DNA of 52,833 nucleotides from Ruminococcus sp. Lineage in GTDB: Bacteria; Bacillota; Clostridia; Oscillospirales; Acutalibacteraceae. Positions within the stretch are counted from its first letter, which is position 1. Every line of letters starts with the position of its first letter. The translations under genes were made by a program, and so were the position numbers. This document shows, in pieces, positions 3,739-48,595 of this stretch. The DNA lies in NCBI GenBank assembly GCA_023667385.1, contig JAMPAE010000001.1:1-52833 (forward strand). Reading direction: 5' to 3'. Under the pieces are notes generated by a model that saw only the letters and a program-made list of their open reading frames with translations, ran no database searches and was not told the DNA's origin.

Positions 3739-3786
3739 TAATCATGGGGTGGTGCAATGCCGCCCCAATCAAAAACTTTCGCAATA

Positions 3787-12084: not shown

Positions 12085-13218
12085 ATGGAAAATCTTGAAA
12101 TTAAAATGTCCGTTGATGAATTGGTTTACACAACGCCACGCGGCAATGTGATAACCGATTCAATCAAGGTTGCAATCTATTTCGGACGGTTGCACAAGAA
12201 CATTATCAAGTCGGTGCGCCGTCTGATGAAACACGGTCTTGAAGCTGAATTTCGCGGCATCGCGGGCGACCGCATTTGTTATCAAATGACCCAAAAGGGA
12301 TTTGAAGCGGTCACAAAGACGTTGCCCGGTGTAGATGCCTTGCGTCAAGCAGCCATTGACAAGTTCAACGGCAAAAAAGAAATATCCTTTGCCGAATACA
12401 TGGAACGACAACAAGCCGTGACCAATGTTGCCCCGACAAGCATTGAAACGGCAATCGTTATCAGAAACACCGACAATGGGCGTTTCGTTGATGCCCGACA
12501 GCTTCATGCATTCATCAACGGAGCAAGTGCATTTTCAACGTGGATTAAAAGCCGCATTGAACATTGCGGTCTTGTCAGTGGTGAAGATTATGTGGCTATT
12601 GATAGTTCAAACATTGAAGAAAGTTTAGCCAATATCCGTGTCGGTCGCCCATCACAAGAATATGCCTTGACCGTTGATTGTGCAAAGGAATTGTGCATGG
12701 TTGAGGGCAACGAAAAAGGACGTGCCGTGCGACGTTACTTCATTGAAGCCGAAAAGCGTTTCAGGGCATCACAACCCACCGCCCCGGCAATTCCTCAAAC
12801 ATTCGCCCAAGCCTTGCGCCTTGCCGCCGAACAAGCGGAAACCATTGAAGCGCAACAAAAGCAGATTCAAGCGCAATCCAAGCAGCTTGCCGACCAAGAA
12901 GCCGACATTCGTTTTGTCCGTTCCTTGCAGACTGCCGACACGTCAATCTATGTCGCCGACCTTGCCAAGCTGATAACACAAAACGGGGTTGAAATCGGCG
13001 GCATCCGGCTTTTCAAGTGGTTGCGCGACAAAGGTTATTTGACCCTTGACAACAAGCCGACACAAAACGCCTTGCAAATGGGTTTGTTTGAAATCAAGAC
13101 AACGCAATGGGAAAAGCCAAATGGGGAAATCAACACGTCTTTCACAACCCTTGTCACGGTCAAGGGGCAAAAATATTTCATCAACAAATTCATCTATAAC
13201 ACCCAAAACAAGCCATGA
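12085..13218 (+). CDS. Rha/AntA-type regulatory protein with a KilAC-like antirepressor C-terminus
   Basis: The N-terminus has the Rha-like VITDSIKVAIYFGRLHKNIIKSVRRL. The middle has the AntA-like VDARQLHAFINGASAFSTWIKSRI. The C-terminus has FAQALRLAAEQAE...ADLAKLI...WLRDKGYL. Confidence 0.65.
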   Translation: MENLEIKMSVDELVYTTPRGNVITDSIKVAIYFGRLHKNIIKSVRRLMKHGLEAEFRGIAGDRICYQMTQKGFEAVTKTLPGVDALRQAAIDKFNGKKEISFAEYMERQQAVTNVAPTSIETAIVIRNTDNGRFVDARQLHAFINGASAFSTWIKSRIEHCGLVSGEDYVAIDSSNIEESLANIRVGRPSQEYALTVDCAKELCMVEGNEKGRAVRRYFIEAEKRFRASQPTAPAIPQTFAQALRLAAEQAETIEAQQKQIQAQSKQLADQEADIRFVRSLQTADTSIYVADLAKLITQNGVEIGGIRLFKWLRDKGYLTLDNKPTQNALQMGLFEIKTTQWEKPNGEINTSFTTLVTVKGQKYFINKFIYNTQNKP

Positions 13219-13814
13219 AAATCTATATTTCGGGAAGAATCACGGGGTTGCCGTTGTCAGAAGTCCGACAACGGTTTGAAGATGCCGCCATTATGCTTGA
13301 AGATATTGGCTTTGAAGCGGTGAATCCCCTGAATAACGGACTTGAACACAAAGCGAGTTGGAAAGAACACATAGTTGCAGACATCCGAATGCTTCTTGAT
13401 TGTGATGCAATTTACATGATGGACAATTGGATGGAGAGCCGGGGCGCGGGCATTGAATATGACATCGCCAACCGCCTTAACCTTGACGTGTGGTTTGAAT
13501 CAAAGATTTGCCGTGAAAATCAATCGGTGTTGCGCATTCAAAACGCCATCCACGAAGTCATGGGGTTGCGCTTCAATCAATACACGACCAAATGCCGGAA
13601 ACGCGAACACTTCTTTGCACGGATGCTTTTTGTGTATCATTGCCGACAGCTCAAAATGACCTTGACGCAAATTGCCGGATATATCCACCGCGACCATTCT
13701 TCAATGCTTCATTTCTTGCGGAAATATGATGATGATTACACCTACAATCCACAATTCCGCGAAATGGCAACAAAGGTAAATGAATTGTTAAATCCCTTAT
13801 CCAAAGACAAATGA
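13215..13814 (+). CDS. Fusion protein: nucleoside 2-deoxyribosyltransferase-like (DUF4406-like) N-terminal domain plus a DnaA-C-like HTH domain
   Basis: MKIYISGRITGLP... lies at the N-terminus. KREHFFARMLFVYHCRQLKMTLTQIAGYIHRDHSSMLHFLRKY resembles DnaA domain IV. Confidence 0.45.
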   Translation: MKIYISGRITGLPLSEVRQRFEDAAIMLEDIGFEAVNPLNNGLEHKASWKEHIVADIRMLLDCDAIYMMDNWMESRGAGIEYDIANRLNLDVWFESKICRENQSVLRIQNAIHEVMGLRFNQYTTKCRKREHFFARMLFVYHCRQLKMTLTQIAGYIHRDHSSMLHFLRKYDDDYTYNPQFREMATKVNELLNPLSKDK

Positions 13815-14887
13815 ACCACAAATTCCCTTATCGTTGGACGTTGAAAGATGCCCGATTCACGAAAGACAAAGGAAAAGTCTTTTCGTGCTTTGCTTGTGGG
13901 GGGGGGTCAACAATGGGTTATAAATTAGCGGGTTATGACGTAATTGGTTGTAACGAAATTGACCACCGCATGATGTACACTTATTGTCAGAACCACAACC
14001 CCCGCTTTCCGTTCCTTGAACCGATTCAGGATTTCAAGAACCGTGAAGATTTGCCGCCCGAACTGTTCAACCTTGACATCTTGGACGGGTCGCCCCCTTG
14101 TTCAACCTTTTCAATGGCGGGTGTGAATTGCGGTCGTGAAAAGTCTTGGGGTAAGATGAAGAAATTCCGCGAGGGTCAAGCCGAACAAATCCTTGATACG
14201 CTTTTCTTTGATTTCATTGACCTTGCCAAGAAGCTGCAACCGAAAGTGATTGTCGCCGAAAACGTCAAAGGATTGCTTCTTGGGGAAGCAAAGAAATATG
14301 TTCAACGGATTTACACCGAAATGACCGAAGCGGGGTATCATTGCCAACATTTCGTTCTTGATGCCCAAACAATGGGTGTGCCGCAACGCCGTGAACGTGT
14401 CTTTTTCGTTGCCTTGCGCGATGATTTGGTTGACCGTATGCCGTGTCAAAACACGTTGTTTGACGTTACCCCAGTGTTGAAGCTAACATTCAACGAATCG
14501 CCCATCTTGTTTTCCGAAGTGATGGACGGCAAAGGTCGTGAAATTGAATCCGCAGAAATGCGCAAAAGGTGGGAAGCACGGCAACCGGGCGATGATGATT
14601 TTGGCGATGTCACAACACGTCTTTATGGTCGCCGACTGACATTCAACACGCAATTTGCCTATGCCGACCGCGTTTGCAATTGCCTGACCGGGAAAGAAGA
14701 TTCAACCGTGTTGTTTGATTATCCACGTTATTTGAGCCAAAGCGAGGTTTGCAAGATTGCTTCATTTCCGACCGATTATGACTTTGGCGGCAACAAACCG
14801 CACTATGTCGCCGGAATGTCCGTGCCGCCCGTGATGATGGCGCAAATCGCAACCGCGATATGGGGGCAATGGTTATCAAAAATTTGA
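13811..14887 (+). CDS. DNA (cytosine-5)-methyltransferase
   Basis: Motif I is FSCFACGGGSTMG, motif IV is SPPCSTFS, motif VI is ENVKGL and motif VIII is QRRERVFF. Confidence 0.85.
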   Translation: MNHKFPYRWTLKDARFTKDKGKVFSCFACGGGSTMGYKLAGYDVIGCNEIDHRMMYTYCQNHNPRFPFLEPIQDFKNREDLPPELFNLDILDGSPPCSTFSMAGVNCGREKSWGKMKKFREGQAEQILDTLFFDFIDLAKKLQPKVIVAENVKGLLLGEAKKYVQRIYTEMTEAGYHCQHFVLDAQTMGVPQRRERVFFVALRDDLVDRMPCQNTLFDVTPVLKLTFNESPILFSEVMDGKGREIESAEMRKRWEARQPGDDDFGDVTTRLYGRRLTFNTQFAYADRVCNCLTGKEDSTVLFDYPRYLSQSEVCKIASFPTDYDFGGNKPHYVAGMSVPPVMMAQIATAIWGQWLSKI

Positions 14888-14928
14888 CTAACTTTGTAAC
14901 ACTATAAGACATTAAAATTTTCGTAACA

Positions 14929-15513
14929 ATGAAATTATTCTTCTATGACCTTGAAACGACCGGAACAAACCCCGGTCGCAACGGGATTCACCAAATTAGC
15001 GGTGAAATCGTGATTGACGGCAAGACCGTTGAAACCTTTGACTATAAGGTGCAGCCGAACCCAAAGGCGCAAATTGAAGATGCCGCCCTTGAAGTCGGTG
15101 GCGTGACCCGTGAACAAATAATGGCTTATCCCACGATGGATAAAGTTTACAATGAACTTGTCGCAATGCTTGGCAAGTACGTTGACAAGTTCAACCCGAA
15201 AGACAAATTCCACCTTGTCGGTTACAACAATCGCGGTTTTGATGATAACTTCTTTCGGGGGTTCTTCTTGCAGAACGGCGACAAATACTTTGGTTCTTGG
15301 TTTTGGGCTGATTCAATTGACGTGCTTGTGTTGGCTTCAACATTCCTTGCCGACCGCCGCCACGAATTGCCCAACTTCAAACTTGCGACCGTTGCCGACT
15401 TCTTGGGCATTGACACGACCGCCGGGAAGCTGCATGATGCGTCCTTTGACATCTTTGTGACAAAGGCGGTGTTTGATTTCATCATGTCTAAATTCATAAT
15501 GCACGGAGTATGA
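14929..15513 (+). CDS. DnaQ-like 3'-5' exonuclease
   Basis: ExoI is FYDLETTG, ExoII-like is VGYNNRGFDDNFF and ExoIII-like is HDASFD. Confidence 0.75.
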   Translation: MKLFFYDLETTGTNPGRNGIHQISGEIVIDGKTVETFDYKVQPNPKAQIEDAALEVGGVTREQIMAYPTMDKVYNELVAMLGKYVDKFNPKDKFHLVGYNNRGFDDNFFRGFFLQNGDKYFGSWFWADSIDVLVLASTFLADRRHELPNFKLATVADFLGIDTTAGKLHDASFDIFVTKAVFDFIMSKFIMHGV

Positions 15514-18184: not shown

Positions 18185-18221
18185 ATAAAGCGTGTTTCAT
18201 AGTGTTACACGCTTTATTTTT
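18185..18221 (+). terminator. Rho-independent terminator separating the early and late modules
   Basis: 11-bp stem ataaagcgtgt / acacgctttat with an 11-nt loop, followed by tttt. Confidence 0.6.
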
Positions 18222-23185: not shown

Positions 23186-23348
23186 ACCCGCCGCCCCGGA
23201 ATACACTTGCCGCGATTGCCGACATTCGGAGAATTGGCACAATGTCGGGGCAAACGGTCAATTCATATTCTGCAACTGCAAATTCCAAAAGTGGTGCAAA
23301 TTCCTTGACCACGATTATTGCAACAACTTTCAAAAGCGTTTATCCTGA
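23166..23348 (+). CDS. Cys-rich small protein (zinc-ribbon-like)
   Basis: 60 aa: MAKKASKPAAPEYTCRDCRHSENWH...FCNCKFQKWCKFLDHDYC. Its stop overlaps the MuF ATG. The longer track ORF 22932..23348 overlaps the lipoprotein gene. Confidence 0.4.
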   Translation: MAKKASKPAAPEYTCRDCRHSENWHNVGANGQFIFCNCKFQKWCKFLDHDYCNNFQKRLS

Positions 23349-26300
23349 TGGCAAAGAAGAAGCAACAACCAAAGGCGACCCGCTTTTCAATACAAGGCTT
23401 TGACTTGAACCATTTCCGCGCCACCGAACAATATGCGGCAATGGTGCAAGCCTTGTTTGACCGTGCCACCCTTTTGATGTCGCAAGCTGCAACACGCGGC
23501 ACGATTGACCCCGACAAACCCTTTTCGTTTGATGATTACCCAGCATTAAAAGCCGAATTGCAAAAGGTGGCATCACAACTTGCGTCACAACTGACCACAA
23601 CGATTGAAAAGGGGTCGCGCAATCAATGGTTGTTCGCTTGTGATAAGAATGACGGATTCATTGATTCAATAATGGACACGTCAAAGGTATCAAAGGCGCG
23701 GTTGAAGAAGATGCAAGACCGCAATTTGGACGCATTGCGCACGTTTCAAGACCGCAAGGTGGGCGGCATGAACTTGTCGCAACGTGTGTGGCGTTATGTC
23801 GGACAATACAAAGAACAACTTGAATCCGCACTTGATGTCGGACTTGGAGAGGGGCGCAGCGCACAAGAACTTGCCCGTGATGTAAAGAAGAACTTGCGCG
23901 AACCTGACCGTTTGTTTCGCCGTGTGCGTGACAAGCGGGGCAACCTTGTGTTGTCAAAGGCTGCAAGGGCATATCATCCGGGGCAAGGTGTTTATCGGTC
24001 AAGCGTGAAGAATGCCCAACGTCTTACAAGGTCGGAAATCAATATGGCTTATCGTGAAAGCGACTTTTTGCGGTGGCAACAACTTGATTTCGTTGTCGGC
24101 TTTGAAATAAAGCGGTCTAATTGGCACGATGAGGACGGACACGAATATAAATGCAAGTTGTGTGACCGTCTGCAAGGGCGTTATCCCAAGTCTTTCAAGT
24201 TCAAAGGATGGCATCCGCAATGTCGGTGTTATGCCGTGCCGATTCTGATGGATGAAGAAACCTTTGATGAAAACGAATTGGGCGACCTCAAAGCAGCCTT
24301 GCGCGGCACGGAGTACAAGAAGAAGCAAGCAAGATATGTTGTTACCGATGTGCCGGACGCATTCAAAGAATGGGTTGAGGAAAACAAAGACACCGTTTCC
24401 GGGTGGAGTTCAACGCCGTATTTCATACAAGACAACTTTGTTGATGGCGACATCACAAAGGGGTTGAAGATAGATTTGCCGACAGTTGAACCCGATATGC
24501 CCACAATCCCCACATTCAAGGCAACAACCCCCCAAGAAATTAAAGATTTCATTCTTGCCAACATTGCCGATGATTGCACCCTTGAAATCGGCAAAAATGA
24601 CCTTGATTTGTGGAATGATATTGTCAATCAACTAAACCAACGCATTCAACAATTCGGATTGCCCAAGTTTAGCCGTATTGGAAAACCCGCGAATCGGCAA
24701 GCGGAAGCATCTTGGGATGGGAATAACAACGGATTTAATCTGAATATCCCTTATTTACGCAATCAGACCGCAATTGCGAGGGCTGAAAAGTGGAAGAAAA
24801 AGGGTGTTTTCTATTCGCATACCTATGAGGATAAAGAAGATTATGTTCGTGCGGTAATTGACCACGAAATCGGACATTGTTTATTGTCGCAATTCGGCTT
24901 CAAGTCTGATGCAATAAGCACGATGGGCAAAGCGGGTAAATCAATAATGTTGAATGGCAAACCTTTCAATGAAATTAACGATGTGTTGGGTTATTATGCT
25001 TCAACCGATGTTGATGAATACTTTGCCGAAGCATTTGCGATGTTTGCCGGAAAGAACCGTGACAAGTTGGGCGAATACACAAGGTCAATGATGGAAAGAT
25101 TCGTTGAAAAGGTCAAGAAAAAGACCGGGCAAGACCCATTCGCCGCCCCCGGTAAGTCAGAACCGAAGATTGACCCGGTGCAAGCGCAGCTTGACGCACT
25201 TATGCCGTCCGTTGAAGCGGCAAGGAAGATTTGTCAGGAATGGGGAATTGTAATGCAAGAAAAACGCCTTAATGAAGCGGTTGCAGAAAAAGACATTAAG
25301 ACAATCAATGGTTGCATTGCTGCAATCACAAGTATTGACACGAAGTACACAACCGAAATGTCGGCATTCTTTGCCGATTGCACACACTTGATTAAGGAAA
25401 TGAACGAATCCGGCGGGGATTTCAAGACCATCATTGCCGAATTAACCCAATACATGACCAATCTTTCAAAGGACAAAAAGATGTGGTCGGATGGTGCTTC
25501 ATTCTATCAATCCGAAATTCAAAAGGCAAAGGACAAGTTGAAGCAATATAAGGCATCGCCGGAAGCATCAATGACGGCATCGCAAAAATCCTTGCTTTCC
25601 GATGTTCGTATAACAATAAGACAAGCCGAAGAATGGGGAATCAGCACAACCAAAATTAAAGGTCTGATGCAACAATTCATTGACCACCCCAATTTTGATT
25701 GGCGCACACAACCCGAATCGGAGAATTACGAAAGATTCCTTGAAAACGAATATTTTGCTTTGGAGGGTAAAATAACCCAAGTCCGAAAGAAGATGGAACA
25801 ATTCTTGACCGAAGCAAGGGCATTGATTAAAGAAGCCGACAAATTGGGTCTTGATACCGATGCAAACCGAAACGATTTAAGCCGATATGTGTTCGCGTTG
25901 TCGGGGTCTGATAAGGCTTACACTTGGGGGCAATTCAAGAATGAAATCAAAAAGATTTACAACGCCCTAAAAGTGACCATTGATGAAACCGTCAAGAAGA
26001 ATGAAGAAGAAGCGGCAAGGAAATCTTCAATGGAACATGAAGCAACATTCACGGGCGAACCACACAAAGCCGTGAAAATTGATTATAAGACGGATTCCGA
26101 AGTTGATGCCACATTTGCAGAGATAAATAAGGACTTTACCGTTGAACGATGGTTTGAAAATGGCGATTTGCGATTGACCCCAACGAATGAACGCGGGGTT
26201 AATGGCTTCACATATATGGATGGGCGTATTTCGTTAAAACCCGATAGATTGCGACTTGTTAAGTCTGCATTGGGCAAAATAGGACAAAAAAAGACATCCG

Positions 26301-26851
26301 AAATCACGTTTGCCGAAGCTGATGCAATGGCAACCTTTTGGCACGAAATATGCCACAATCGCAATACGTCCGGCAATATGCGCCTAACGAAAATGGAAAC
26401 AAGGTTTATGGAGTTGGCAAATGAATTTGTGGCACGACATTCTTTGCCTGAATTTTATGCGAAATTGGGCGCAAGTCATGTTCCGCACCCTGAATTTCAG
26501 ACCGACCGAAATTCCACGAATTATAATGAAATGGTCACGAATTATGATTTTGTTATCACAAAATTGGGATTGTCGCATTCCAAGACCCTTGCATCAGTCC
26601 GCAAGCACTTATTTTCGGGTGCATACAATGACCAACAAACGGGATTGGGTCAAGGCTTGCTTGATGGTGGTTTGAAATATGCCAACGGAAAAGCGGTCAA
26701 AAAATCCGATTTGAATGCCTTGTTGAAATTGATAAGGACAACCGAAAGTGACGTAAGAACATACGACCCCAAACAAGGTAAATTTGTGATTACAAAGACC
26801 CGTCAAGACATCATTGTTGAATGGCTAAAAGAAAAAGGGTTCATTGTATAA
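23348..26851 (+). CDS. Head morphogenesis protein (SPP1 gp7 / Mu F family) fused to a large polyvalent C-terminal region with two zincin-like HExxH modules
   Basis: The gp7/MuF core ends in KGWHPQCRCYAVP. HEIGH is at 24863..24877 with a downstream EYFAEAF at 25016. HEICH is at 26342..26356 with a downstream ELANEF. The track start at 23318 is a TTG. Confidence 0.75.
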   Translation: MAKKKQQPKATRFSIQGFDLNHFRATEQYAAMVQALFDRATLLMSQAATRGTIDPDKPFSFDDYPALKAELQKVASQLASQLTTTIEKGSRNQWLFACDKNDGFIDSIMDTSKVSKARLKKMQDRNLDALRTFQDRKVGGMNLSQRVWRYVGQYKEQLESALDVGLGEGRSAQELARDVKKNLREPDRLFRRVRDKRGNLVLSKAARAYHPGQGVYRSSVKNAQRLTRSEINMAYRESDFLRWQQLDFVVGFEIKRSNWHDEDGHEYKCKLCDRLQGRYPKSFKFKGWHPQCRCYAVPILMDEETFDENELGDLKAALRGTEYKKKQARYVVTDVPDAFKEWVEENKDTVSGWSSTPYFIQDNFVDGDITKGLKIDLPTVEPDMPTIPTFKATTPQEIKDFILANIADDCTLEIGKNDLDLWNDIVNQLNQRIQQFGLPKFSRIGKPANRQAEASWDGNNNGFNLNIPYLRNQTAIARAEKWKKKGVFYSHTYEDKEDYVRAVIDHEIGHCLLSQFGFKSDAISTMGKAGKSIMLNGKPFNEINDVLGYYASTDVDEYFAEAFAMFAGKNRDKLGEYTRSMMERFVEKVKKKTGQDPFAAPGKSEPKIDPVQAQLDALMPSVEAARKICQEWGIVMQEKRLNEAVAEKDIKTINGCIAAITSIDTKYTTEMSAFFADCTHLIKEMNESGGDFKTIIAELTQYMTNLSKDKKMWSDGASFYQSEIQKAKDKLKQYKASPEASMTASQKSLLSDVRITIRQAEEWGISTTKIKGLMQQFIDHPNFDWRTQPESENYERFLENEYFALEGKITQVRKKMEQFLTEARALIKEADKLGLDTDANRNDLSRYVFALSGSDKAYTWGQFKNEIKKIYNALKVTIDETVKKNEEEAARKSSMEHEATFTGEPHKAVKIDYKTDSEVDATFAEINKDFTVERWFENGDLRLTPTNERGVNGFTYMDGRISLKPDRLRLVKSALGKIGQKKTSEITFAEADAMATFWHEICHNRNTSGNMRLTKMETRFMELANEFVARHSLPEFYAKLGASHVPHPEFQTDRNSTNYNEMVTNYDFVITKLGLSHSKTLASVRKHLFSGAYNDQQTGLGQGLLDGGLKYANGKAVKKSDLNALLKLIRTTESDVRTYDPKQGKFVITKTRQDIIVEWLKEKGFIV

Positions 26852-26853
26852 AG

Positions 26854-26879
26854 AAAGGGCGGCATTGCGACCGCCCTTT
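26854..26879. terminator. Bidirectional GC-stem hairpin between convergent genes
   Basis: aaagggcgg-cattgcga-ccgcccttt is flanked by an A-run and a T-run. Confidence 0.65.
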
Positions 26880-26880
26880 T

Positions 26881-27138
26881 CTATTCGTTGAAATATGCCG
26901 TTAATTCCTTTTCAAATTGGCTTTCAGCTTGCTTTTTTAATTCATCATCGCCAATGATTTCGGCAAGGTCTATGAAAGAGAATGCAAGTTGATGTGGAGA
27001 TTGCGCCCAATAGTCTTTCAAGTATTGGTCACGGTCGCACCCCTTTGGGATGTACGGCAATACTTCTTCAAGAATCACCGGGTCTTTGGTAAAATCAAAG
27101 ACAGTCTTGTTTTTTAGGTTTGAATAATCTTTTTTCAT
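26881..27138 (-). CDS. Hypothetical protein (island gene 10)
   Basis: 85-aa ORF with an ATGA overlap onto the upstream gene. Confidence 0.5.
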   Translation of the reverse strand: MKKDYSNLKNKTVFDFTKDPVILEEVLPYIPKGCDRDQYLKDYWAQSPHQLAFSFIDLAEIIGDDELKKQAESQFEKELTAYFNE

Positions 27139-27449
27139 TTTGATTGATGTTTTCGTTCAATCGTGCCGCGATAGATGCGACACTTGTTGTTGATATAAGG
27201 GCGGTCGGGGGCAAGACCATAATTCCACAAGGTTGTCATTGACACACCCAATTCATCAGGCGTGAAACGCTCAAAGATTGCGGCGATTGACCCAAAATAA
27301 TAGTGTCTATCATCGCCCAAGCAGACGTGAACGACTTGTTCTTGCTTCATTTCGGCTTCATTAGTTTGTGCAAAGTTAACATTTTTCGGTCGGATTTGAG
27401 GAAACACACGCGGTTCATCGTGTCGTTCCTGAAAAGTCAAACCATTCAC
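27135..27449 (-). CDS. Hypothetical protein (island gene 9)
   Basis: 104-aa ORF that overlaps the upstream gene. Confidence 0.5.
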   Translation of the reverse strand: MNGLTFQERHDEPRVFPQIRPKNVNFAQTNEAEMKQEQVVHVCLGDDRHYYFGSIAAIFERFTPDELGVSMTTLWNYGLAPDRPYINNKCRIYRGTIERKHQSK

Positions 27450-27972
27450 GGGGCGAATTGAATGCCGCCTTTTTGATTTCGCGGTAAAAGGCTTTGTTCA
27501 GCTTGCGCAACCTTGCAAGATGTTCATGGGGATGCCATCGCCAATTCGGCATCACTTCATTGTTTGCTGAATAAATGCCGCCTTGTTTCGGCTCAAAGCG
27601 GGCAAAGGCAACCAAGTGTCCGTCTTTGATGAAAACAACGTCACAATCGCTTGAATTGTGCTTTTTGGGGTATCGTATTGCCTTGCATCCTGAATAATAT
27701 TCTTGGATGCGGCGTTGTTGTTCCATCGCTTCACGGATTCTTGCCGCCTTGTTCTTGCGGAAATCCCAAAGGTCGGCGGCAACCTTGTGGCGCAATTCGG
27801 CGACATTGATGGGGTCATTGCCCGTTGCGATGTCATAAGGCATCAGACCGTCAACGAACATACGCACGGCACGTTCAAAGTTTTCCTTGTCCACAATCTT
27901 GTTGTGAAAGTCGGTCAGGAAGTCGGGGGAAAGGTTGAACCTTTCCGAAAGGGAATTGATTATTGATTCCAT
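27415..27972 (-). CDS. Hypothetical protein (island gene 8)
   Basis: 185-aa ORF. No motif recognised. Confidence 0.5.
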   Translation of the reverse strand: MESIINSLSERFNLSPDFLTDFHNKIVDKENFERAVRMFVDGLMPYDIATGNDPINVAELRHKVAADLWDFRKNKAARIREAMEQQRRIQEYYSGCKAIRYPKKHNSSDCDVVFIKDGHLVAFARFEPKQGGIYSANNEVMPNWRWHPHEHLARLRKLNKAFYREIKKAAFNSPREWFDFSGTTR

Positions 27973-27979
27973 TTTGTTG

Positions 27980-28450
27980 TTATTTGGTTGATTTTATGTT
28001 GAGTAATTTTGCAAGGGCGAATTGTTCCGGCGAAAGGATTGTTCGCCAATATGATTCGGGGTATTTATCCCACGGAATCTTGTATGTGCAATGGTCTTGG
28101 GATTCGTGACCCCACCATTGGCAATGTCGGTTTTCATCGGTTGAATCCTTGCACACTTCAAGGATTTCCCCACACAATTTGCGCATACACGTTTCACATT
28201 GTGCGGTGTATTCGGGTGCATCCTTGACAACATTGTTTTCAATCGCCCAAGAATAAGCGTTGTTTAATTCCGTTTCAAGGGATGTGCCGATGAATGTTGC
28301 AAGTTCAACACCACCTTTGCCGATTGTAACCTTGACACAGGGCGAATAAATGGGTTGCCCTGATTCATCCACACCGTCAATTTTGAGATTGGACACACGC
28401 ACGAACACTTTGCGGCGTGTCAAGATGTCAAAGATTTCAAGACCGTTCAT
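27980..28450 (-). CDS. Hypothetical Cys/His-rich protein (island gene 7)
   Basis: The start MNGLEIF at 28450 forms an ATGA overlap with the upstream TM gene. It contains CETCMRKLCGEILEVCKDSTDENRHCQWWGHESQDHC. The track ORF extends to 28606. Confidence 0.5.
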   Translation of the reverse strand: MNGLEIFDILTRRKVFVRVSNLKIDGVDESGQPIYSPCVKVTIGKGGVELATFIGTSLETELNNAYSWAIENNVVKDAPEYTAQCETCMRKLCGEILEVCKDSTDENRHCQWWGHESQDHCTYKIPWDKYPESYWRTILSPEQFALAKLLNIKSTK

Positions 28451-28641
28451 TTCTTCTTGTTTTTGAGGATTGAGAAAAACACGACCACCGCGAAAAATGC
28501 GATGATGCCAACGGCACACGGAATCCAAAGGGGTGCAAAGACCCAACCCCAATTCAAGCCGGGGTTGATGAAAAGTTTGATGGCGACCAAAAGCACGGTC
28601 AGCCACAAAAGGGTTATCGTTGCGATGTCACGCTTCTTCAT
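28447..28641 (-). CDS. Small two-TM membrane protein (island gene 6)
   Basis: 64 aa: ITLLWLTVLLVAIKLF ... LWIPCAVGIIAFFAVVVFFSIL. Confidence 0.5.
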   Translation of the reverse strand: MKKRDIATITLLWLTVLLVAIKLFINPGLNWGWVFAPLWIPCAVGIIAFFAVVVFFSILKNKKK

Positions 28642-28945
28642 GTTGATAGATGTTATATGTTTTGTTAATTGATTGGTATATTTCCGACAAGGTGCAATTC
28701 ACATATTCGGATTTTAACGCATACCACAAACCGGGTGTTTCGCCATAAGAGGTCGTGAACCATTCCTTTGCATCACGCCATTGCAACCACGAAAAGACGG
28801 CAAATTTGTGGCGCGGCATACGTTCTTCAAGGGTTGTCAGGGCGACACGACCGTTGGGCGACTTCTTGATTAGCGTTGCGACATTCTTGTAAAAGTGTGC
28901 AAGCACTTTATCTTGCTTTGAGGGTTTATAGTTTTTATTCATCAT
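28628..28945 (-). CDS. Hypothetical protein (island gene 5)
   Basis: 105-aa ORF with overlaps on both sides. Confidence 0.5.
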   Translation of the reverse strand: MMNKNYKPSKQDKVLAHFYKNVATLIKKSPNGRVALTTLEERMPRHKFAVFSWLQWRDAKEWFTTSYGETPGLWYALKSEYVNCTLSEIYQSINKTYNIYQHEEA

Positions 28946-29639
28946 CGGTCAATTCTTGGGTTAAGAAATCACGGAACAAGGCGGCATCAACCAATCGCCG
29001 GATGCGTGTTGGCTTCATTCCACCCATATATTCGGGGATAATCTTTTGCATCTTATAAATTTCATCCGGCAAGATTGAATGCAGCTTGCGCCCCGCCTTT
29101 TTAGTTATCATATCATCAAAGTGTCGTGCATACCTTATCAGGGCGGCAAACATTGAACACACAAGGTCAGCTTGCGCGATGAACATAACCCAATCCGGCA
29201 ACAAGTCGGGATTCTTGCGCCGATATTCCGAATGAATCACGTTCCACGCCCATTGCAAGGTCGGCGATTCCTCAATGAATTGTTCGGCATGGTCGGCAAT
29301 GTTCTTGCGGTGGTCATAGTCAAGGATGCGTGAACGTGTGCGGTCATAATCACGCCACAATTCATTCAAGGCGCGTGAACAATGCCGCGTTTCACGGACT
29401 TTTAGAATCTTTGCAAGGTCGTTCAGGGTATCAATATAATCCCAAATGACATCAAAGAACACAAAGGGCAAGTAAGAGATTCGGAACACCGTGTGGCGGT
29501 CAAATGCCGTTTCAATGTTGAAATCCCTTTGCACCGGGCGCGATGGCATCACACTGAATGGCGATGGCTGCAACGGCATCATGCCCGGTCGGTGCTTCTT
29601 GATGAAGTCAAGTATTTCTTTGGGCGGTGTCGGTGTCAT
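28935..29639 (-). CDS. Hypothetical protein (island gene 4)
   Basis: The start at 29639 forms an ATGA overlap with the upstream stop. The track ORF extends to 29678. Confidence 0.5.
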   Translation of the reverse strand: MTPTPPKEILDFIKKHRPGMMPLQPSPFSVMPSRPVQRDFNIETAFDRHTVFRISYLPFVFFDVIWDYIDTLNDLAKILKVRETRHCSRALNELWRDYDRTRSRILDYDHRKNIADHAEQFIEESPTLQWAWNVIHSEYRRKNPDLLPDWVMFIAQADLVCSMFAALIRYARHFDDMITKKAGRKLHSILPDEIYKMQKIIPEYMGGMKPTRIRRLVDAALFRDFLTQELTDDE

Positions 29640-29935
29640 ATCAAACGCCAATGTGATGTGGTGATGCAACCGTAACATTCCGATGTGATGATTGCTTCAC
29701 CATCCTTAATCAGCGTGTCCACCTTGTCGGTCATAACCAAAAAGTCGCAACCGCCGCGTTCATTCTTGATTCGGATGAAATTGCGGTTATTAAGGCGGTC
29801 AAGGCTTATTTTGCGGATGATGATTTTGGTTGTTTCGCCAATCCAACCATCATAAAAGGTCAGCATCTTGCCGACAAGCGCATTTTGATAATATTGGGCA
29901 TCTTTCATGGTGTGGAAATTTAACCGTTGATGCAA
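29636..29935 (-). CDS. Hypothetical protein (island gene 3)
   Basis: 99-aa ORF with an alternative start at 29908. Confidence 0.45.
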   Translation of the reverse strand: MHQRLNFHTMKDAQYYQNALVGKMLTFYDGWIGETTKIIIRKISLDRLNNRNFIRIKNERGGCDFLVMTDKVDTLIKDGEAIITSECYGCITTSHWRLI

Positions 29936-30141
29936 TAATTGTATGCCTGACGGAATTTTGCTTGTGTAGGCGAAAAGCGAAAGTAAGACATCGCGTTTTG
30001 AACGTGTGTCACGGCATCAAGACCGCAAAGGGGTTTGAACTTGTTGATGATGGGTGTGACATCACGGTTAAGGGGATTGCCGTTGGTTGCGATGATAACC
30101 TTGCGGCATTCTTCTTTGATTGCTTTGTAAATCGGATTCAT
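29920..30141 (-). CDS. Hypothetical protein (island gene 2)
   Basis: The ATG at 30141 carries the conserved tttcgcaataATG context. The hairpin at 30160..30180 lies upstream of it. Confidence 0.45.
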   Translation of the reverse strand: MNPIYKAIKEECRKVIIATNGNPLNRDVTPIINKFKPLCGLDAVTHVQNAMSYFRFSPTQAKFRQAYNYCING

Positions 30142-30188
30142 TATTGCGAAAGGGTTGTTGGGGCGGCATTGCACCGCCCCGTGATTAT

Positions 30189-30551
30189 TTAGATGCGAGT
30201 GTGTGCGATTTTGTCAAGGTAGAAATCGCGTAATTCCCAAAAGAAATCGTTGTTGTCGGTCACGCCGTCACGAATGCAATCGCAAAGGGTGTTGGCGATG
30301 GTAGCTTTGAGATTGTCAAGTTCTTGGCGTGTGATTGCCTGACGTTCTGCAACGGTTACATATTCCGGGAACACTTCTTTGAATCGTTCATCGGAAAGGA
30401 ACATTGCCGATTGAATCTTGTTAAGCATTGTTTCATCGCCCTTGATTGTGATTACCTTGTCGAATTCTTCAAGGACTTCAGACACGCCCTTGATGTAGTT
30501 GATTTGGGCGGGTTGGTATTCGTTTTTGTAGATGCGGAGTGTATATTCCAT
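30189..30551 (-). CDS. Hypothetical protein (island gene 1)
   Basis: 120-aa ORF whose ATG at 30551 carries the tttcgcaataATG context. Confidence 0.5.
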   Translation of the reverse strand: MEYTLRIYKNEYQPAQINYIKGVSEVLEEFDKVITIKGDETMLNKIQSAMFLSDERFKEVFPEYVTVAERQAITRQELDNLKATIANTLCDCIRDGVTDNNDFFWELRDFYLDKIAHTRI

Positions 30552-30610
30552 TATTGCGAAAATTGTGGGGTTGCCCCCGGTTAAACAACGTGTCTTATAT
30601 TAAGACACCG

Positions 30611-30618
30611 CAAAGTTA
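30611..30618 (-). promoter_or_regulatory. Candidate -7 box TAACTTTG driving the minus-strand island
   Basis: The reverse complement of caaagtta is TAACTTTG, the same octamer as at 3409 and 3446. It lies 60 nt upstream of the ATG at 30551. Confidence 0.35.
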
Positions 30619-30758
30619 TGTGTTATTTTGGAAATAACAAACTTTTTCGGCAAAAATTTTGCTTTTGCATTGCATTTTCTTTGCTTGTGCAGTGCAAAAT
30701 GTGAATAACTTGGGGATAACATTGTTGAACAATATAAATGTATTACTATAAAACACAC

Positions 30759-30766
30759 TAAATTTG
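30759..30766 (+). promoter_or_regulatory. Candidate -7 box TAAATTTG for the head gene operon
   Basis: It matches TAnnTTTG and lies 40 nt upstream of the ATG at 30806. Confidence 0.35.
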
Positions 30767-30805: not shown

Positions 30806-31501
30806 ATGACCATCCAAGAAATTTTGGCGTTACTGACCGCAAAGTTTTCAGGCGCGCGAAAAGACGGGTTGACCACGTTGGCACGCACCATCGCGTTACA
30901 ATGTGCCACCATTGAAGAAGCGAGAACGATTGTTGACAAGTTGACCGATGCGCAAGTCAATGAGTTCATCAAGAATTTCCGTGCGGATGTTGACAAGGAA
31001 GTGACCGAGGGTGTCAAGACATCGGAAGCCAACTTGCGCAAGAAGTACAACATCAAGGAAGACCCCGCAACACCCCCCAAAGCTGAACCCGGCGGCAATG
31101 GGGAAAACATCGCCGACATTGTGAAAGCAGCTGTCGCCGAAGCGGTCAAGCCTTATGCCGACCGAATTGCGACAATGGAAACCGAGAATCTTAACAAATC
31201 AAGGCTTCAACGACTGAATGAAGCGTTGGCAAGCTGCAAGGACGCAACTTTCAAGGCGCAAACCCTGAAAGACTTTGCCCGAATGCAATTTGCCGATGAT
31301 TCGGCATTTGATGAATACTTGACCGAAAAGACCACGGACATCACCGCCGCAAATCAGGCGTTTGCCGATAACTCAATGCGACAATCAGGTGGAACGCCCC
31401 TTTTCTCCAACAAGGGCGAATCCGGCGTTTCAAAAGCCGTTGCCGACTTTGTGGCAAGCGCAAACCCCGCCAACAATCAGTTTGCGGGCAAAGAACTTTA
31501 A
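30806..31501 (+). CDS. Scaffolding protein
   Basis: 231 aa, predicted helical and charged, Ala/Lys/Glu-rich. It lies immediately upstream of the capsid genes. Confidence 0.55.
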   Translation: MTIQEILALLTAKFSGARKDGLTTLARTIALQCATIEEARTIVDKLTDAQVNEFIKNFRADVDKEVTEGVKTSEANLRKKYNIKEDPATPPKAEPGGNGENIADIVKAAVAEAVKPYADRIATMETENLNKSRLQRLNEALASCKDATFKAQTLKDFARMQFADDSAFDEYLTEKTTDITAANQAFADNSMRQSGGTPLFSNKGESGVSKAVADFVASANPANNQFAGKEL

Positions 31502-45400: not shown

Positions 45401-46462
45401 GACACCGCCGATGGCAAACGTCAAGTGTTCGTTTCAACGCCTTATCCCCCTTATGACATCGGCGACCTTTGGGTTGACGGAAAGGAATTGCGCCGTTGCA
45501 TCACCGCAAAAGCAAAGGGGCAATCTTACAGTGTCAACGATTGGGTTATTGCAGTGTATTATGATAATACAAAGACAACCATTGACGGCGGCATTGTCAC
45601 GTCCGGCACAATCCAAGTGGCGGGCGATAATGCAAGCATCCTTGCCGGAATGACCGGACAAGGCACGGCGGCAACGTCAATCCGCTTTTGGGCGGGTGCA
45701 TCTTTTGAAAACCGCGCCACCGCACCTTATCGTGTATTGCAAGATGGGTCGTTTTATGCGACAAAAGCCAACATCACGGGAACAATCAATGCAAATGCGG
45801 GTTCAATCGGTGGTTTCAATATATCATCCGGCAAAATCGGTTATGGCACATCATCAGAACAAGACACAACGCACGGGTTGGCATTGTTAAGCAGCTTCAT
45901 TCGCTTTTACAATGGCGACCAAAGAACGCTTGTTGGATGCCTTAATTCGTTGGGTTATCCTTATAATGGATTGTTTGAGTTGAACGGAAGCATGGGAACG
46001 GCATTGGAAGTTCACCATAAGTTCAAGAACACGACCGATTCCGACCTTGAACATTGGTATTTGCCGAAAGCACTTGCGGTTTATGGCAATCAATATAATC
46101 TTGGTAAGGTGGCATTCTTGGAAAAGGGATATATCGGACAAATATATTCCGATATTATTCAAAGTTATTTTGCCATAACCCACAAATATCATTTCACATC
46201 AAATCCAAATAGTCGCACATCTTTGTACTTGCCGACAAAAACAACTATCAACAATAGAACCGGGGATGTTCCCGTGATTTTTGATGTTGAGATTGTGTGT
46301 GATTGGAATATGGCAAATACCGTTGTGTTGACATCGCAAACCGGGGCGCAAATCTATAATCAGAATGGCGGCACGGTTTCAACCGTTGATTTGGCAAAAG
46401 GTGATTCAATCAATTTACGCTATTATAACGGCGGTTGGGTTATTATAAATCGTTATAATTAA
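42416..46462 (+). CDS. Tail tip / host-specificity protein (Tal-like) with an internal tandem duplication
   Basis: 1348 aa, in the position after Dit. Two paralogous units of about 130-170 aa lie at 44657..45178 and 45179..45553. Confidence 0.65.
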   Translation: MEQIIITKPNGNRVPMQSRRTATDVTAAKQSWVLNGDDTVDITVKSPFRQTYDIGDKITIFGRDYTLNRLSKPKKTGMHEFEYSLQFEGVQYDLLRASYDVTIDTTNNELQDVQGDSLTGDLRRFLTVLVANANRVFPGKWALGVCPETKSDITKTFGESDNCLSVLQSILGEFDESYFFDIQTIGGVYTINIRSTSQTLPFTLEFGKGNGLYMLSRDNVSSSNIVTRLKVYGSASNITSKYRADRLCLPGKTKGQSYIEDAQAVARYGIFEGRKHFDNIKPTFTGHVQAVGDSVCEFIDPTISFDLNAVEADGKTTVYLIDGVSAKVHFNSGNLAGYEFEIAKYDHATHKVTLRKFTDDRGDVFPSETSAAFQFRASDGTYSGDEYKIVDIALPQELVDKAEAELLEAGQKYYEQNSQPKVQYSLSVTKAFIEKNFATDAGVVNVFVPGDYVRVKDDDIGVDKAVRIKSITRNVLDPYDYSLNLSDTVTTTVTNRVLSDLIDIDKIIEINNLKDPARARANWRSSREVLDMVFDPEGDYYTDKIKPNSIDTLALSVGAKSMQFGLTNTVFQPNYNGNPKLMRWQGGVLTHYTINEDSAVSWVLGDGQITLSPDSQPFYIYARCHRVSSAGQIAITTRQYRVDEDPNYYWFWIGVINSVDPDIKARSIALTYGFTMINGRFIKTGRIESADGETYFDLDNSEIGGRIVFNSNGQEKTLEELGQEALESKDFINNTLPGLLSELQSQLDGVVEQWFYSVDPLPLNTAPQATANEPASDWTTSEDKEKHLGDLYYNTETGKVWRYVKILWSPAPNYARATRYVWKELEDTELAQALALAQDALDAANTKARIFVDTPYPPYSVGDLWVQGASGDIYRCKTARDSGSFTSSDWEKASKYTDDSALNAFINNNFANTVSNLETQIDGKVETWFQVSDPATSWTTNELKQIHVGDMWYNTNTKELKYYKRLTNNQPYTFGWQLVEDAKAIAAYEAASQAQDTADGKRQVFVSTPYPPYDIGDLWVDGKELRRCITAKAKGQSYSVNDWVIAVYYDNTKTTIDGGIVTSGTIQVAGDNASILAGMTGQGTAATSIRFWAGASFENRATAPYRVLQDGSFYATKANITGTINANAGSIGGFNISSGKIGYGTSSEQDTTHGLALLSSFIRFYNGDQRTLVGCLNSLGYPYNGLFELNGSMGTALEVHHKFKNTTDSDLEHWYLPKALAVYGNQYNLGKVAFLEKGYIGQIYSDIIQSYFAITHKYHFTSNPNSRTSLYLPTKTTINNRTGDVPVIFDVEIVCDWNMANTVVLTSQTGAQIYNQNGGTVSTVDLAKGDSINLRYYNGGWVIINRYN

Positions 46463-46860: not shown

Positions 46861-46942
46861 AAAGTTATCCTCAATTTATTCAACAATGTTTCATAGTAAG
46901 ACAATGAGCATTAAATTTGCATCCAACAATTCGTAAAACGAT

Positions 46943-47210: not shown

Positions 47211-48527
47211 ATGGGTCTTATGATTGGAGTGGGCAACACAAAACCCACATTCGCTTATGACTATTATTACGGCATTGAATGGGATAAGACCGTTTCAAAT
47301 CCTATTCCAACCCGTGTCGGCAAAGATGAACTTCACAAGTCTTTGCCCGTGCAGTCACTTATGCGCCGTTGCACTTTGAAAGATGATGGCGCGGTCAATT
47401 ACTATCTTCACGCCAACGATTCATCAAAGCGTGACAACGGAGCAGCCGCCGACCTGACGGGCGCACACGGTCAATTTATGGTTGAATTGCCGGATGCTTA
47501 TATGCGCTTTGAGATGGACGGCAACAAGAATCGTGCGCTTATGAGCGACCGACCCTTGCCCGGATTTATCAAGTGGCGCAAAGACTACGTTTCAGCCGAT
47601 GAAGCGTGTGTGCAGCGTTCCACAACCACCCTTTGCGCCGTTGTCAACAACGACCCCGATTTCAGGGGTGGCGGCAATCAAACCGCTTATGATGATACCG
47701 ACCACACTTTGTTGGGTCGCCCGGCAACGTCAATCAGCTTGACAAACTTTCGTGCATACGCCCGCAAGCGTGGGTCGGTGTCATGGAATTGCAATCTTTA
47801 TCAGACACACCGCAAGTTGTGGTGGTTCTTTGCGATTGAATATTGCAATTTCAATTCGCAAGCCGCGTTCAATGCCGAATTGACCGCTGACGGATTCCAT
47901 CAAGGTGGACTTGGCGCGGGTGTCACAACCCTTAACGGCACAAAGTGGAACACTTGGAACGGTTACAATCCTTTCATTCCTTGCGGTCACACCCTTTCGT
48001 TGGGCAATCACACGGGAACGGTGGATTACACCTTACCAAGCGGATATGACACAACAACCCTTGTCGTTGCCGTGCCGTCTTATCGCGGCGTGACAAATCC
48101 TTTTGGTCATATATGGAAATGGACTGATGGTTGCCTTTGCAACATTCAATCCGATGCCGCCGGGGGATTATCCGAATTTTACGTTTGTGACGACCCGACA
48201 CACTTTGCATCAACCATCGGCGCGGAATATCAGTTGCGCGGCAACTTGCCCCGAAAAGAGGGATATGTAAAAGCCTTGATTCTTGGCGAACACGGCGAAA
48301 TAATGCCCCTTGAAGTCGGTGCAAGCACAACCACCTATTTCTGCGACTACTTTTATACTAACATACCCGCAAGTGGTGAAGCCATACGCGGCGTTTTGTT
48401 CGGCGGTTATGCGTATTATGGTGCGTGTGCAGGCTTCGTGGCTGCGCATGCGTATACTGCGCCCACGTCTACGTCTGCGATTTTCGGTTCTCGGCTTTGC
48501 TATTACCCAATCGAAACCGCCGCGTAA
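47211..48527 (+). CDS. DGR target protein (receptor-binding candidate, C-terminal C-type-lectin/FGE-like variable domain)
   Basis: 438 aa. The C-terminus GVLFGGYAYYGACAGFVAAHAYTAPTSTSAIFGSRLCYY is encoded by VR1. Confidence 0.85.
   Translation: MGLMIGVGNTKPTFAYDYYYGIEWDKTVSNPIPTRVGKDELHKSLPVQSLMRRCTLKDDGAVNYYLHANDSSKRDNGAAADLTGAHGQFMVELPDAYMRFEMDGNKNRALMSDRPLPGFIKWRKDYVSADEACVQRSTTTLCAVVNNDPDFRGGGNQTAYDDTDHTLLGRPATSISLTNFRAYARKRGSVSWNCNLYQTHRKLWWFFAIEYCNFNSQAAFNAELTADGFHQGGLGAGVTTLNGTKWNTWNGYNPFIPCGHTLSLGNHTGTVDYTLPSGYDTTTLVVAVPSYRGVTNPFGHIWKWTDGCLCNIQSDAAGGLSEFYVCDDPTHFASTIGAEYQLRGNLPRKEGYVKALILGEHGEIMPLEVGASTTTYFCDYFYTNIPASGEAIRGVLFGGYAYYGACAGFVAAHAYTAPTSTSAIFGSRLCYYPIETAA
48387..48501 (+). 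repeat. DGR variable repeat 1 (VR1)
   Basis: Gapless 115-nt alignment to TR 48596..48710. There are 20 mismatches. Nineteen fall at the 29 TR adenines and one is T48650 to G. Confidence 0.9.
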
Positions 48528-48595
48528 AACGTAAATCGTTCCCCGAAAGCATTTTAAGCGAGTTTTGAAATGAAGATAAAAGGGTTGTCAGGTGT

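Follow-up and report, generated by a model that had tools for sequence, protein, structure and literature searches.

Accessory hotspots of phage genomes have been mapped mainly in Proteobacteria, in phages P2, P4, and P22. The present work concerns a compact block of ten minus-strand genes, designated i01 to i10, at positions 26881-30551 of a 52,833-nucleotide stretch of DNA from a Ruminococcus sp. assembly (GCA_023667385.1, contig JAMPAE010000001.1), hereafter called the window. This DNA represents a siphophage-like temperate genome whose host belongs to the Bacteroidota, and the block lies between its MuF-like and scaffold-like genes. From the comparisons described below it is probably this phage's copy of an ancestral reverse-strand accessory slot, which belongs to the Bacteroidales temperate siphophages related to phage005.

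In Rousset et al. study the hotspots of P2-like prophages and P4-like satellites were characterized as loci of 1-5 kb with high turnover, in which DprA-type toxin-antitoxin pairs are found (Rousset et al. 2022, PMC9122126). In P22-like phages a block of variable content and independent regulation, the "ant moron" or immI region, occupies a fixed site of the late region, and ten types of it were recognized in sixteen genomes (Villafane et al. 2008, PMC2629481). The classical lambdoid morons, according to the Hendrix/Juhala concept, possess their own promoter and terminator and are located within the late operon (PMC2629481). The only deposited DNA relatives of the window are phage005a/b_ATCC49417, with a capsid protein 77% identical to that of the window (Matrishin et al. 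2023, PMC10367356; PP754928.1); genomic islands in phage005-type prophages are mentioned in that study, and a text search of it found no description of the slot considered here.

For the comparison 98 relatives were fetched by the capsid anchor from genomes and IMG/VR, with capsids 49-92% identical to that of the window and host labels of Muribaculaceae, Prevotella, Alistipes, Bacteroides pyogenes, and others. Both anchor genes were present in 77 loci; the motif and family counts refer to 78 slots (relatives), the tblastn census to 99 loci, and the slot counts of i02 and i03 to a census with hidden Markov models (HMM). The open reading frames (ORFs) of the slots were picked greedily, and the picks include antisense shadow ORFs, e.g., "f5(+)". 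A block of 2.3-6.8 kb separates the MuF-like and scaffold anchors in 76 of the 77 loci, and the ORFs picked in it lie mostly or entirely on the minus strand; the sole exception is L019, the most distant locus (49% capsid identity), with a junction of 440 bp. At exactly the same position Porphyromonas gingivalis phage005b has a 16-gene minus-strand block of unrelated content, and in the distant Riemerella phage RAP44 (28% capsid identity) the equivalent position is occupied by four small reverse-strand genes, which are flanked by an SPP1-gp7-type head morphogenesis gene and by scaffold/capsid genes. The occupied slots of these 76 loci, of phage005b, and of RAP44 indicate that the reverse-strand block is ancestral and was not inserted into this phage. 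An inserted island, as the block had been called in an earlier sequence-only reading of the window, is thereby contradicted, and the native GC content and codon usage of the block speak against it as well.

The slot proteins of 78 slots were clustered into 151 families, 77 of which were found in one locus only, so that the comparison with related prophages proposed in the sequence-only reading did reveal variable cargo at a conserved position. It is the individual genes of the slot that change, while the block as a whole persists. Among the features by which a moron is usually recognized, presence in some relatives and absence from others was found only for individual cargo genes and not for the block, and the base composition of the block does not differ from that of the phage; signals resembling an own promoter and an own terminator are both there. 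The features of a P2/P4-type hotspot, i.e., a small locus between conserved anchors and a high turnover of content, were both found. The earlier idea of moron-type cargo is thus retained as far as a predicted separate transcription unit and variable cargo at a fixed point are concerned, but not for the two genes that are near-core nor for the block itself, which is ancestral. Counted from the promoter, the typical slot starts with variable genes (often a PAPS-reductase-like gene or a pair of SLOG and phosphoribosyltransferase-like (PRT-like) genes) and continues with i03, a small variable gene, i02, sometimes an anti-repressor with a 77-amino-acid (aa) gene, and a small terminal gene.

In addition, RAP44 (L100) contains a second reverse-strand block at 12983-15193, between the tail genes and the tape-measure gene, with an Ant anti-repressor, an Ig-domain protein, and small ORFs. 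Reverse-strand accessory slots may recur at several module boundaries in the wider phage group.

Two of the ten genes, i03 and i02, are near-universal soft-core genes and not cargo. In the HMM census i03 was present in 72 of the 78 slots (66 with the full-length protein and six with a 75-aa version restricted to the N-terminal part) and i02 in 69, the prevalence of the pair being about 85-88% of relatives; both genes are absent from phage005b and from several other relatives (L017, L074, L078, and L081). Of the 177 homologues of the i03 protein, the 120 listed are all at least 58% identical to it; each is unnamed or labelled "hypothetical," and none contains a Pfam domain. An exhaustive profile search of 1.84 billion representatives returned only 61 clusters for i03, Pfam finds no informative domain in the distant profile matches, and tblastn against deposited phages gave no match. 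The AlphaFold2 (AF2) model of i03 has a predicted local distance difference test score (pLDDT) of 89, and in it a helical N-terminal part is followed by one long helix, a sheet of four strands, and helices at the C-terminus; Foldseek found nothing similar to it in PDB (best E 0.39) or BFVD (best E 0.075), and the PDB sequence-profile search gave no link to a known family. The i02 protein matches phrog_10608 at 7e-21, which is a PHROG of unknown function, and its AF2 model (pLDDT 84) is composed of a beta-hairpin, three short helices, and then beta strands. The 21 members of the i02 family gave no Pfam match at E ≤ 1, the PDB profile search nothing at E ≤ 10, and Foldseek a best PDB E of 2.5, the I-HmuI DNA-binding region and AcrVA3 (TM-score 0.50) being non-significant matches. 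An excisionase-type winged helix (HTH_17/MerR/Xis), guessed for i02 from the sequence pattern, found no support and was withdrawn.

Nuclease-protected DNA of phage005b was reported to be enriched in culture supernatant, together with phage-like particles (PMC10367356). Since phage005b possesses neither i02 nor i03 and its protected DNA is nevertheless found in the supernatant, the pair is not required for particle production. The homologues of the block are therefore not core genes with known morphogenetic roles, the outcome that would have argued against accessory cargo in the sequence-only reading: the conserved pair has no role assigned and is absent from phage005b.

A sub-lineage of L008, L009, L054, L061, L064, and L050 has neither full-length i03 nor i02. 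Its first slot gene (~8265-8507) encodes the 75-aa protein that corresponds to the N-terminal helical part of i03, and an anti-repressor and a 77-aa gene are found at the far end of its slot. The existence of this N-terminal-only version suggests that i03 is modular.

The coding evidence for the block is consistent. The ten ORFs tile 26881-30551 with a coding fraction of 97.5%, and with the best-supported starts, which after refinement are ATG in all ten, they follow on the minus strand as i10 (30189-30551; 120 aa, acidic, the first gene of the operon), i09 (29920-30141; 73 aa, with its own leader), i08 (29636-29908; 90 aa), i07 (28935-29639; 234 aa, the largest cargo gene), i06 (28628-28945; 105 aa), i05 (28447-28641; 64 aa, two hydrophobic segments), i04 (27980-28450; 156 aa, Cys-rich in its C-terminal half), i03 (27415-27972; 185 aa), i02 (27135-27350; 71 aa, with 10 K+R and 8 D+E residues), and i01 (26881-27138; 85 aa, acidic, the last gene). 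By the codon usage of confirmed phage genes the own frame is the best of six for every ORF, and the sign of the AT skew is reversed across 27-31 kb, as also over the lysogeny genes of the minus strand, in keeping with a switch of the coding strand. Nine of the ten ORFs were called independently at the same lengths in public collections, in clusters of 1-5 near-identical "hypothetical" proteins, some of them from contigs binned as Muribaculaceae. The GC content of the block is 0.45-0.46 versus ~0.47 in the window, so there is no GC anomaly, and codon usage is phage-like in all ten genes, with scores of 0.25-0.40 versus 0.45-0.47 bits per codon for the structural genes. According to this tiling, the codon scores, the AT skew, and the public gene calls, the ten compact minus-strand ORFs recognized between the MuF-like and scaffold genes in the sequence-only reading are real. 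The linkage by ATGA or other short overlaps, from which an operon had been deduced, applies to five junctions, namely three exact ATGA overlaps (i08/i07, i05/i04, and i02/i01) and overlaps of 11 and 14 nt, and "operon-like" is a fair description; the other four junctions, however, are gaps of 7, 11, 47, and 64 nt.

The remaining eight genes of the window are rare. Homologues were detected by tblastn in 13 of the 99 loci for i01, 10 for i05, 7 each for i08 and i09, 5 for i10, 4 for i07, 1 for i04, and 0 for i06. No product of the ten has a significant match in Pfam, NCBIfam, or PADLOC (the best E in PADLOC-DB v2 was 0.035, for i10 versus a retron reverse transcriptase outgroup model, with nothing else), no Bro-N, KilAC, or ANT domain was found in them by family scans, and the only PHROGs matches, those of i02 and i05, are both to families of unknown function; these scans agree with the earlier description of the content as uncharacterised. 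The profile and structure searches then proposed were run with Foldseek on i02 and i03 and with PDB profiles on i02, i03, and i07, but no match was found.

In this set i01 represents the variable "terminal small gene" family, and some of its 13 homologous loci carry an opposite-strand copy. The product of i04, previously noted as Cys/His-rich, is moderately so, with 6.4% Cys+His versus 2.1% in reference phage proteins and six Cys in residues 85-121; it has one partial homologue among the 99 loci and a public cluster of 2 members. For i05, which had been described as a two-transmembrane peptide, hydropathy analysis indeed gives two hydrophobic segments; it matches phrog_1374 (3e-7), and its homologues in 10 loci are always located in the slot. 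The public cluster of i06 contains 5 near-identical members, and neither i04 nor i06 has relatives in IMG/VR. The i07 gene is a lineage-restricted ORFan; among 5.8 billion proteins it has 18 homologues, all unnamed and domain-free, which in the four contigs examined occupy the same slot beside a PAPS-reductase-like gene. The homologues of i08 (29-33% identity) are annotated as "hypothetical protein" in metagenome-assembled genomes of Muribaculaceae and "Ruminococcus," and those of i10 share 37-50% identity.

Recognizable cargo was found in the slots of the relatives, where one representative from each of 92 slot families was scanned. A PAPS-reductase-like protein, which matches the BrxP model at 1.5e-17 and DndC weakly, occurs in ~25 loci; Bro-N/KilAC anti-repressors occur in the slots of ~14 relatives and also in phage005b; and a pair of SLOG (YAcAr/DprA-like) and PRT-like proteins, present in ~12 loci, matches ShosA (6.6e-8), ShosT (6.4e-7), and PsyrA/PsyrT in PADLOC. 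Other slot cargo identified by Pfam includes a HigB-like toxin, ADP-ribosylglycohydrolase, PcfJ- and PcfK-like proteins, and tyrosine recombinase/integrase, to which XRE-type helix-turn-helix (HTH) proteins and a ProQ-C-like domain are added. Each slot type has a small (~75 aa) protein near the 3' end, which is i02, f8, or an XRE-type HTH protein. Such cargo types indicate an accessory, conflict, or regulatory hotspot, and nothing in them points to virion assembly. Genes that match defence models, a kind of cargo supposed in the sequence-only reading, are present in relatives' slots, but no product of the window matches a defence model, and for the window the supposition is drawn from the relatives. 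By analogy with them the cargo of the window most likely serves phage-host or phage-phage conflict or regulation and is unlikely to take part in virion assembly.

The expression signals of the block are predicted from its two ends. The candidate promoter (30611-30641, minus strand) consists of a -33 TTTG (30638-30641), a 19-nt spacer, and the -7 box TAACTTTG (30611-30618), an arrangement that fits the Bacteroidetes-type sigma-ABfr consensus, i.e., TAnnTTTG at -7 and TTTG near -33 (PMC7366714). Of 78 relatives, 75 have a minus-strand -7 box (TAnnTTTG) in this intergenic region, and the -33 TTG, the 19-nt spacer, and the -7 box are invariant across 59 distinct relative sequences. At the convergent junction of the MuF-like gene and i01 a terminator-like hairpin (26853-26880, both strands) has folding energies of -16.7 kcal/mol on the plus strand and -18.6 kcal/mol on the minus strand, z-scores of -3.4 and -4.1, respectively, and a U-rich tract after it on each strand; a bidirectional terminator between the converging transcripts is thus a credible prediction. 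Both signals had been put forward in the sequence-only reading, and the TTTG located 19 nt upstream and conserved in relatives, in the case of the -7 box, and the folding energies and U-tracts on both strands, in the case of the terminator, are in favour of them. A further TAACTTTG box (27371-27378, minus strand), located 20 nt upstream of the i02 start codon, is a possible secondary promoter; as a conserved promoter it was rejected, being restricted to the clade of the window (11 of 69 loci).

A 19-bp dyad, GTGTCTTATATTAAGACAC (30590-30608), is located 2 nt downstream of the -7 box of the block and is regarded as a putative operator. In the relatives its arms show compensated changes (GTGTGTTA...TAACACAC, GTGTATTA...TAATACAC, and GTGTTTCA...TGAAACAC); pairing is preserved in 87.9% of cells versus 80.1% in shuffles and 23-62% with slid partner columns, and 34 double-sided changes were counted versus 6.2 expected. 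Back-to-back with the promoter of the block lies the scaffold (head) promoter (30738-30766, plus strand), in which the dyad ATGTATTACTATAAAACAC (30738-30756) is followed after 2 nt by the -7 box TAAATTTG (30759-30766), 40 nt before the scaffold ATG. Three plus-strand promoters have a dyad of the form GTGTnTTAnnnTAAnACAC at a distance of 2-8 nt upstream of their -7 boxes: the scaffold promoter, that of the packaging operon with the 183-aa, ParB-like, and TerS genes (~18192-18210), and that of the diversity-generating retroelement (DGR) target gene, i.e., of the distal tail and DGR-lysis genes (46887-46903). The pattern search returned four copies in the window versus 0.11 expected, and a fifth, at ~18192, was spotted by eye; a copy at 45555-45571 lies inside an ORF. 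Of the 78 relatives, 68 have the dyad at the promoter of the block, 66 have it at the scaffold promoter, and 58 have it at both, compared with 4 of 390 random windows. In phage005b (L105) the three corresponding plus-strand sites (15241, 30534, and 44871) each contain a perfect GTGTTTTATATTAAAACAC dyad.

The plus-strand dyads occupy the spacer where the -33 element would be, and those promoters have no TTTG at -33; together they look like a late-promoter regulon, as judged from the motif positions. The promoter of the block differs from them in its canonical -33 and in its dyad, whose location at or near the start of transcription is a repressing one. Because the plus-strand copies are upstream of the -7 box, in untranscribed DNA, a protein operator is favoured over an RNA hairpin, which was considered less likely, the pair counts fitting either reading. 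The dyads persist in loci without i02 and full-length i03, including phage005b, and therefore i02 and i03 are unlikely to be the dyad binders. Candidate regulators among the proteins shared with phage005b include a repressor-like protein of 97 aa, encoded beside the integrase (1468-1761, minus strand), and the products of two small early genes (4243-4464 and 5111-5383). Dyad copies common to four promoters suggest that one regulator acts on all of them: it might activate the late-type promoters and shut the block off late in infection, or it might repress all four promoters in the lysogen.

Another shared element is a short leader at the gene starts. In the 5' leader of i10 (30549-30578, minus strand) a GGGG-GCAA-CCCC hairpin (30567-30578) is followed by TTTTCGCAATA and the ATG, and between i10 and i09 lies a GC-rich hairpin (30159-30181, minus strand; -17.6 kcal/mol), which is a copy of GGCGGCATTGCnnCCGCC; the two leaders are alike in the order of GC-rich hairpin, TTTCGCAATA, and ATG. 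In the slots the sense strand contains 175 occurrences of CGCAAn(1-3)ATG and the antisense strand 11, and in 53 of 78 slots the motif marks the start of the first gene. This leader is also found ahead of the first early gene (ATG 3787), which is located next to the immunity switch. Homologues of i09 in L002 and of i10 in L020, L021, and L028 come first in their slots, proximal to the promoter, and for this reason the window resembles two "first-position" cassettes in tandem. The CGCAAnnATG leader may serve as a translation-start context, as a micro-homology for recombination, or in both ways.

The GGCGGCATTGCnnCCGCC hairpin, with the same loop, has 4 copies in the window versus 0.10 expected, at 3747-3764(-), 26858-26875, 30162-30179, and 50136-50153. 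All four are situated at module boundaries, namely the start of the early operon, the MuF/block junction, i10-i09, and the end of the reverse transcriptase gene.

Taken as an accessory slot, the block would probably be a self-contained operon, whose housekeeping-type sigma-ABfr promoter fires away from the head promoter and which in this window would be separated by the bidirectional terminator from the converging packaging/MuF transcript. Its content has two layers, the soft-core i03 and i02 near the 3' end and flexible cargo around them, mostly on the promoter side and represented here by eight ORFans. The cargo is swapped between related phages, with the shared short leader (CGCAAnnATG, here after the GC hairpin) possibly helping the exchange, and one DNA-binding factor probably ties the expression of the block to the late programme of the phage.

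Several observations weigh against this account. The box TAACTTTG was found 33 times in the window versus 35 expected, so it is not enriched and the significance of the copy at 30611-30618 depends on its context. By a strict search a comparable hairpin was recovered from only about one quarter of the relatives (19-22 of 78), none of them among the closest, which makes the terminator less universal than the promoter; its treatment as a lineage-wide feature was dropped. The putative promoter, terminator, and operator are all read from the sequence, and phage005b has no dyad at the promoter of its reverse block. The leader, which is also present at the early gene at 3787, may be a mere translation-start context. 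The functional assignment of the window cargo relies on guilt by position, and the good conservation of i02 and i03 may reflect a fixed function in the phage rather than an "accessory" one.

Compared with the described systems, the slot is a new case of a known kind, represented by the accessory hotspots and morons of phages, and the window itself shows no system that would be exceptional or of a new kind; its own features are the reverse orientation inside the head module, the orphan soft-core pair, and the putative operator common to three plus-strand promoters. Similar to the P2/P4 hotspots, it is a small locus (here 2.3-6.8 kb) with high turnover between two conserved anchors in a temperate phage family, the cargo of relatives includes DprA/SLOG-type shosTA-like pairs along with many unknowns, and the anchors permit systematic mining of metagenomic contigs. 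Unlike those hotspots, which are next to cos, the slot is inside the head-morphogenesis module, is oriented for transcription against the direction of the structural genes on both sides, includes two orphan genes of soft-core type, and has at its promoter an operator-like dyad common to three plus-strand promoters; moreover, it is carried by Bacteroidota phages, and its cargo in the window matches no defence model. Like the ant moron, it appears as a variable, independently regulated block at a fixed late-region position, often with an anti-repressor and small regulators, and shows many content types among syntenic phages (here 151 families over 78 slots). It differs from the ant moron in its position, which is between the MuF-like and scaffold genes and not before the tailspike gene, in the absence of an ant gene from the window, where no Arc/Mnt-type repressor or sar-like antisense RNA was identified, and in its unrelated proteins.

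With the lambdoid morons the block shares its own predicted signals, a location between late genes, a probable lack of a morphogenesis or lysis role, and differences among relatives; in contrast to them it is ancestral and almost never absent, has native composition, is conserved in part, and is a ten-gene operon, while a lambdoid moron usually has one or two genes. The resemblance to phage005b includes the genome order, the reverse-strand slot, which is likewise flanked by the minor capsid (MuF) and scaffold-like genes, and the three dyad-marked plus-strand promoters. The slot of phage005b differs in its cargo, which consists of ADP-ribosylglycohydrolase, an XRE regulator, a tyrosine recombinase, an anti-repressor, and a DUF1566 lectin-fold protein among others of its genes, and, unlike the window, phage005b is without i02, i03, and the slot-promoter dyad.

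Other explanations of the block were also considered. Its own promoter-like and terminator-like signals, the rarity or uniqueness of eight of its ten genes among relatives, and codon scores somewhat below those of the structural genes are compatible with a recent one-off moron, i.e., a foreign ten-gene cassette inserted in the head operon of this phage. Such an origin is highly improbable and largely refuted, as 76 of 77 relatives, and even RAP44, have an occupied slot, homology of the promoter region and of i02/i03 extends across the lineage, there is no GC anomaly, and single genes turn over while the block does not. It is unlikely, though not to the same degree, that the block is a secondary immunity or lysis-lysogeny region like P22 immI, with i02 and i03 as regulators and the rest as passengers. 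The fixed position within the late region, the small (~75 aa) 3'-end protein in each slot type, the Bro-N/KilAC anti-repressors in at least 14 relatives' slots and in phage005b, and the dyad at or near the transcription start, which recalls the Arc/Mnt-controlled Pant of P22 (PMC2629481), would all suit such a region. The window, however, has no anti-repressor, i02 is not detectably an HTH or ribbon-helix-helix protein, the dyads persist without i02 and full-length i03, and Shosta-like and toxin-antitoxin cargo is ill-suited to a purely regulatory region.

The conservation of i03 and i02 in about 85-88% of relatives, with at least 58% identity among the listed i03 homologues, their location inside the head module, and their native codon usage raise the question whether they, and possibly others, are conserved phage-cycle genes merely placed on the other strand, which might act as assembly chaperones, packaging or DNA-modification helpers, or late-transcription factors. 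This is very unlikely, since the pair is absent from phage005b, whose nuclease-protected DNA is found in supernatant (PMC10367356), and from L017, L074, L078, and L081, some relatives retain only the 75-aa N-terminal fragment of i03, no similarity to structural, chaperone, or polymerase families was detected, and a core role is at odds with the variability of the other eight genes. A more far-reaching interpretation, which we regard as doubtful but conceivable, is that i03/i02 and the eight ORFans include new Bacteroidales-phage anti-defence, defence, or host-takeover proteins and that the dyad represents an undescribed transcription switch of Bacteroidota phages. It is suggested for i03/i02 by their confident predicted structures with no relatives detected outside the lineage and no structural match; in the case of the switch, one factor may control three plus-strand late-type promoters and, in the opposite sense, the accessory operon. 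The accessory slot of the phage005-related lineage remains the explanation that we prefer.

According to these data the slot is a well-anchored hotspot in widespread gut and oral Bacteroidales temperate phages, and its anchors (the MuF-like gene, the scaffold gene, and the back-to-back promoter region) would enable the mining of short metagenomic contigs. Since 151 families, most without a known function, stand there beside Shosta-like, toxin-antitoxin, BrxP-like, and anti-repressor genes, they make a candidate list for new defence and counter-defence functions. To our knowledge, few such functions have been tested in the Bacteroidota phylum, and the regulation of temperate phages there is poorly known; the i03/i02 pair and the dyad-marked promoters provide testable entry points to it.

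The rest of the window has the organization of a temperate phage. A tyrosine integrase (194-1471, minus strand) and an XRE/CI-type repressor (2913-3356, minus strand) are encoded at the left end, followed by plus-strand early genes for an SbcC/SMC-like ATPase, exonuclease, DNA methylase, MazG-like protein, and single-stranded DNA-binding protein. Then TerS, TerL, an SPP1-type portal, and the MuF-like gene (23318-26851, plus strand, 1177 aa) are found, and to the right of the minus-strand block the scaffold-like gene (30806-31501, plus strand) precedes a head-fibre/decoration-like gene, an E-type major capsid gene, tail genes, the DGR, a weak holin-family match, and a GH108 endolysin.

The immunity switch at 3409-3446 contains two exact TAACTTTG boxes on opposite strands, face to face, both within a near-perfect 38-nt palindrome (TAACTTTGCAAGCG...CGTTGCAAAGTTA), and may represent, as far as the motifs indicate, an overlapping promoter pair for the CI-like repressor and the early operon; a third box, TATCTTTG, is located nearby (3473-3480, minus strand). 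The product of 8333-9103 shares 52% identity with a phage005b gene annotated as Apyc1-like anti-Pycsar nuclease, and because of this identity the phage probably carries at least one counter-defence gene outside the slot. The MuF-like gene is unusually long in comparison with the 591-863 aa versions of the relatives, and only about its first 400 residues align to the minor capsid protein of phage005b. Its C-terminal extension has no Pfam match and contains two HExxH motifs (HEIGH and HEICH), by which it may be a metalloprotease-like effector domain fused to MuF.

The DGR (47211-50071) consists of a variable repeat (VR, 48387-48501), a template repeat (TR, 48596-48710), and an RVT_1 reverse transcriptase (48818-50071) downstream. 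Its target gene (438 aa), which aligns to a "tail protein" of phage005b, ends in the 115-nt VR, 83% identical to the downstream TR, and 19 of the 20 VR/TR mismatches are at template adenines.

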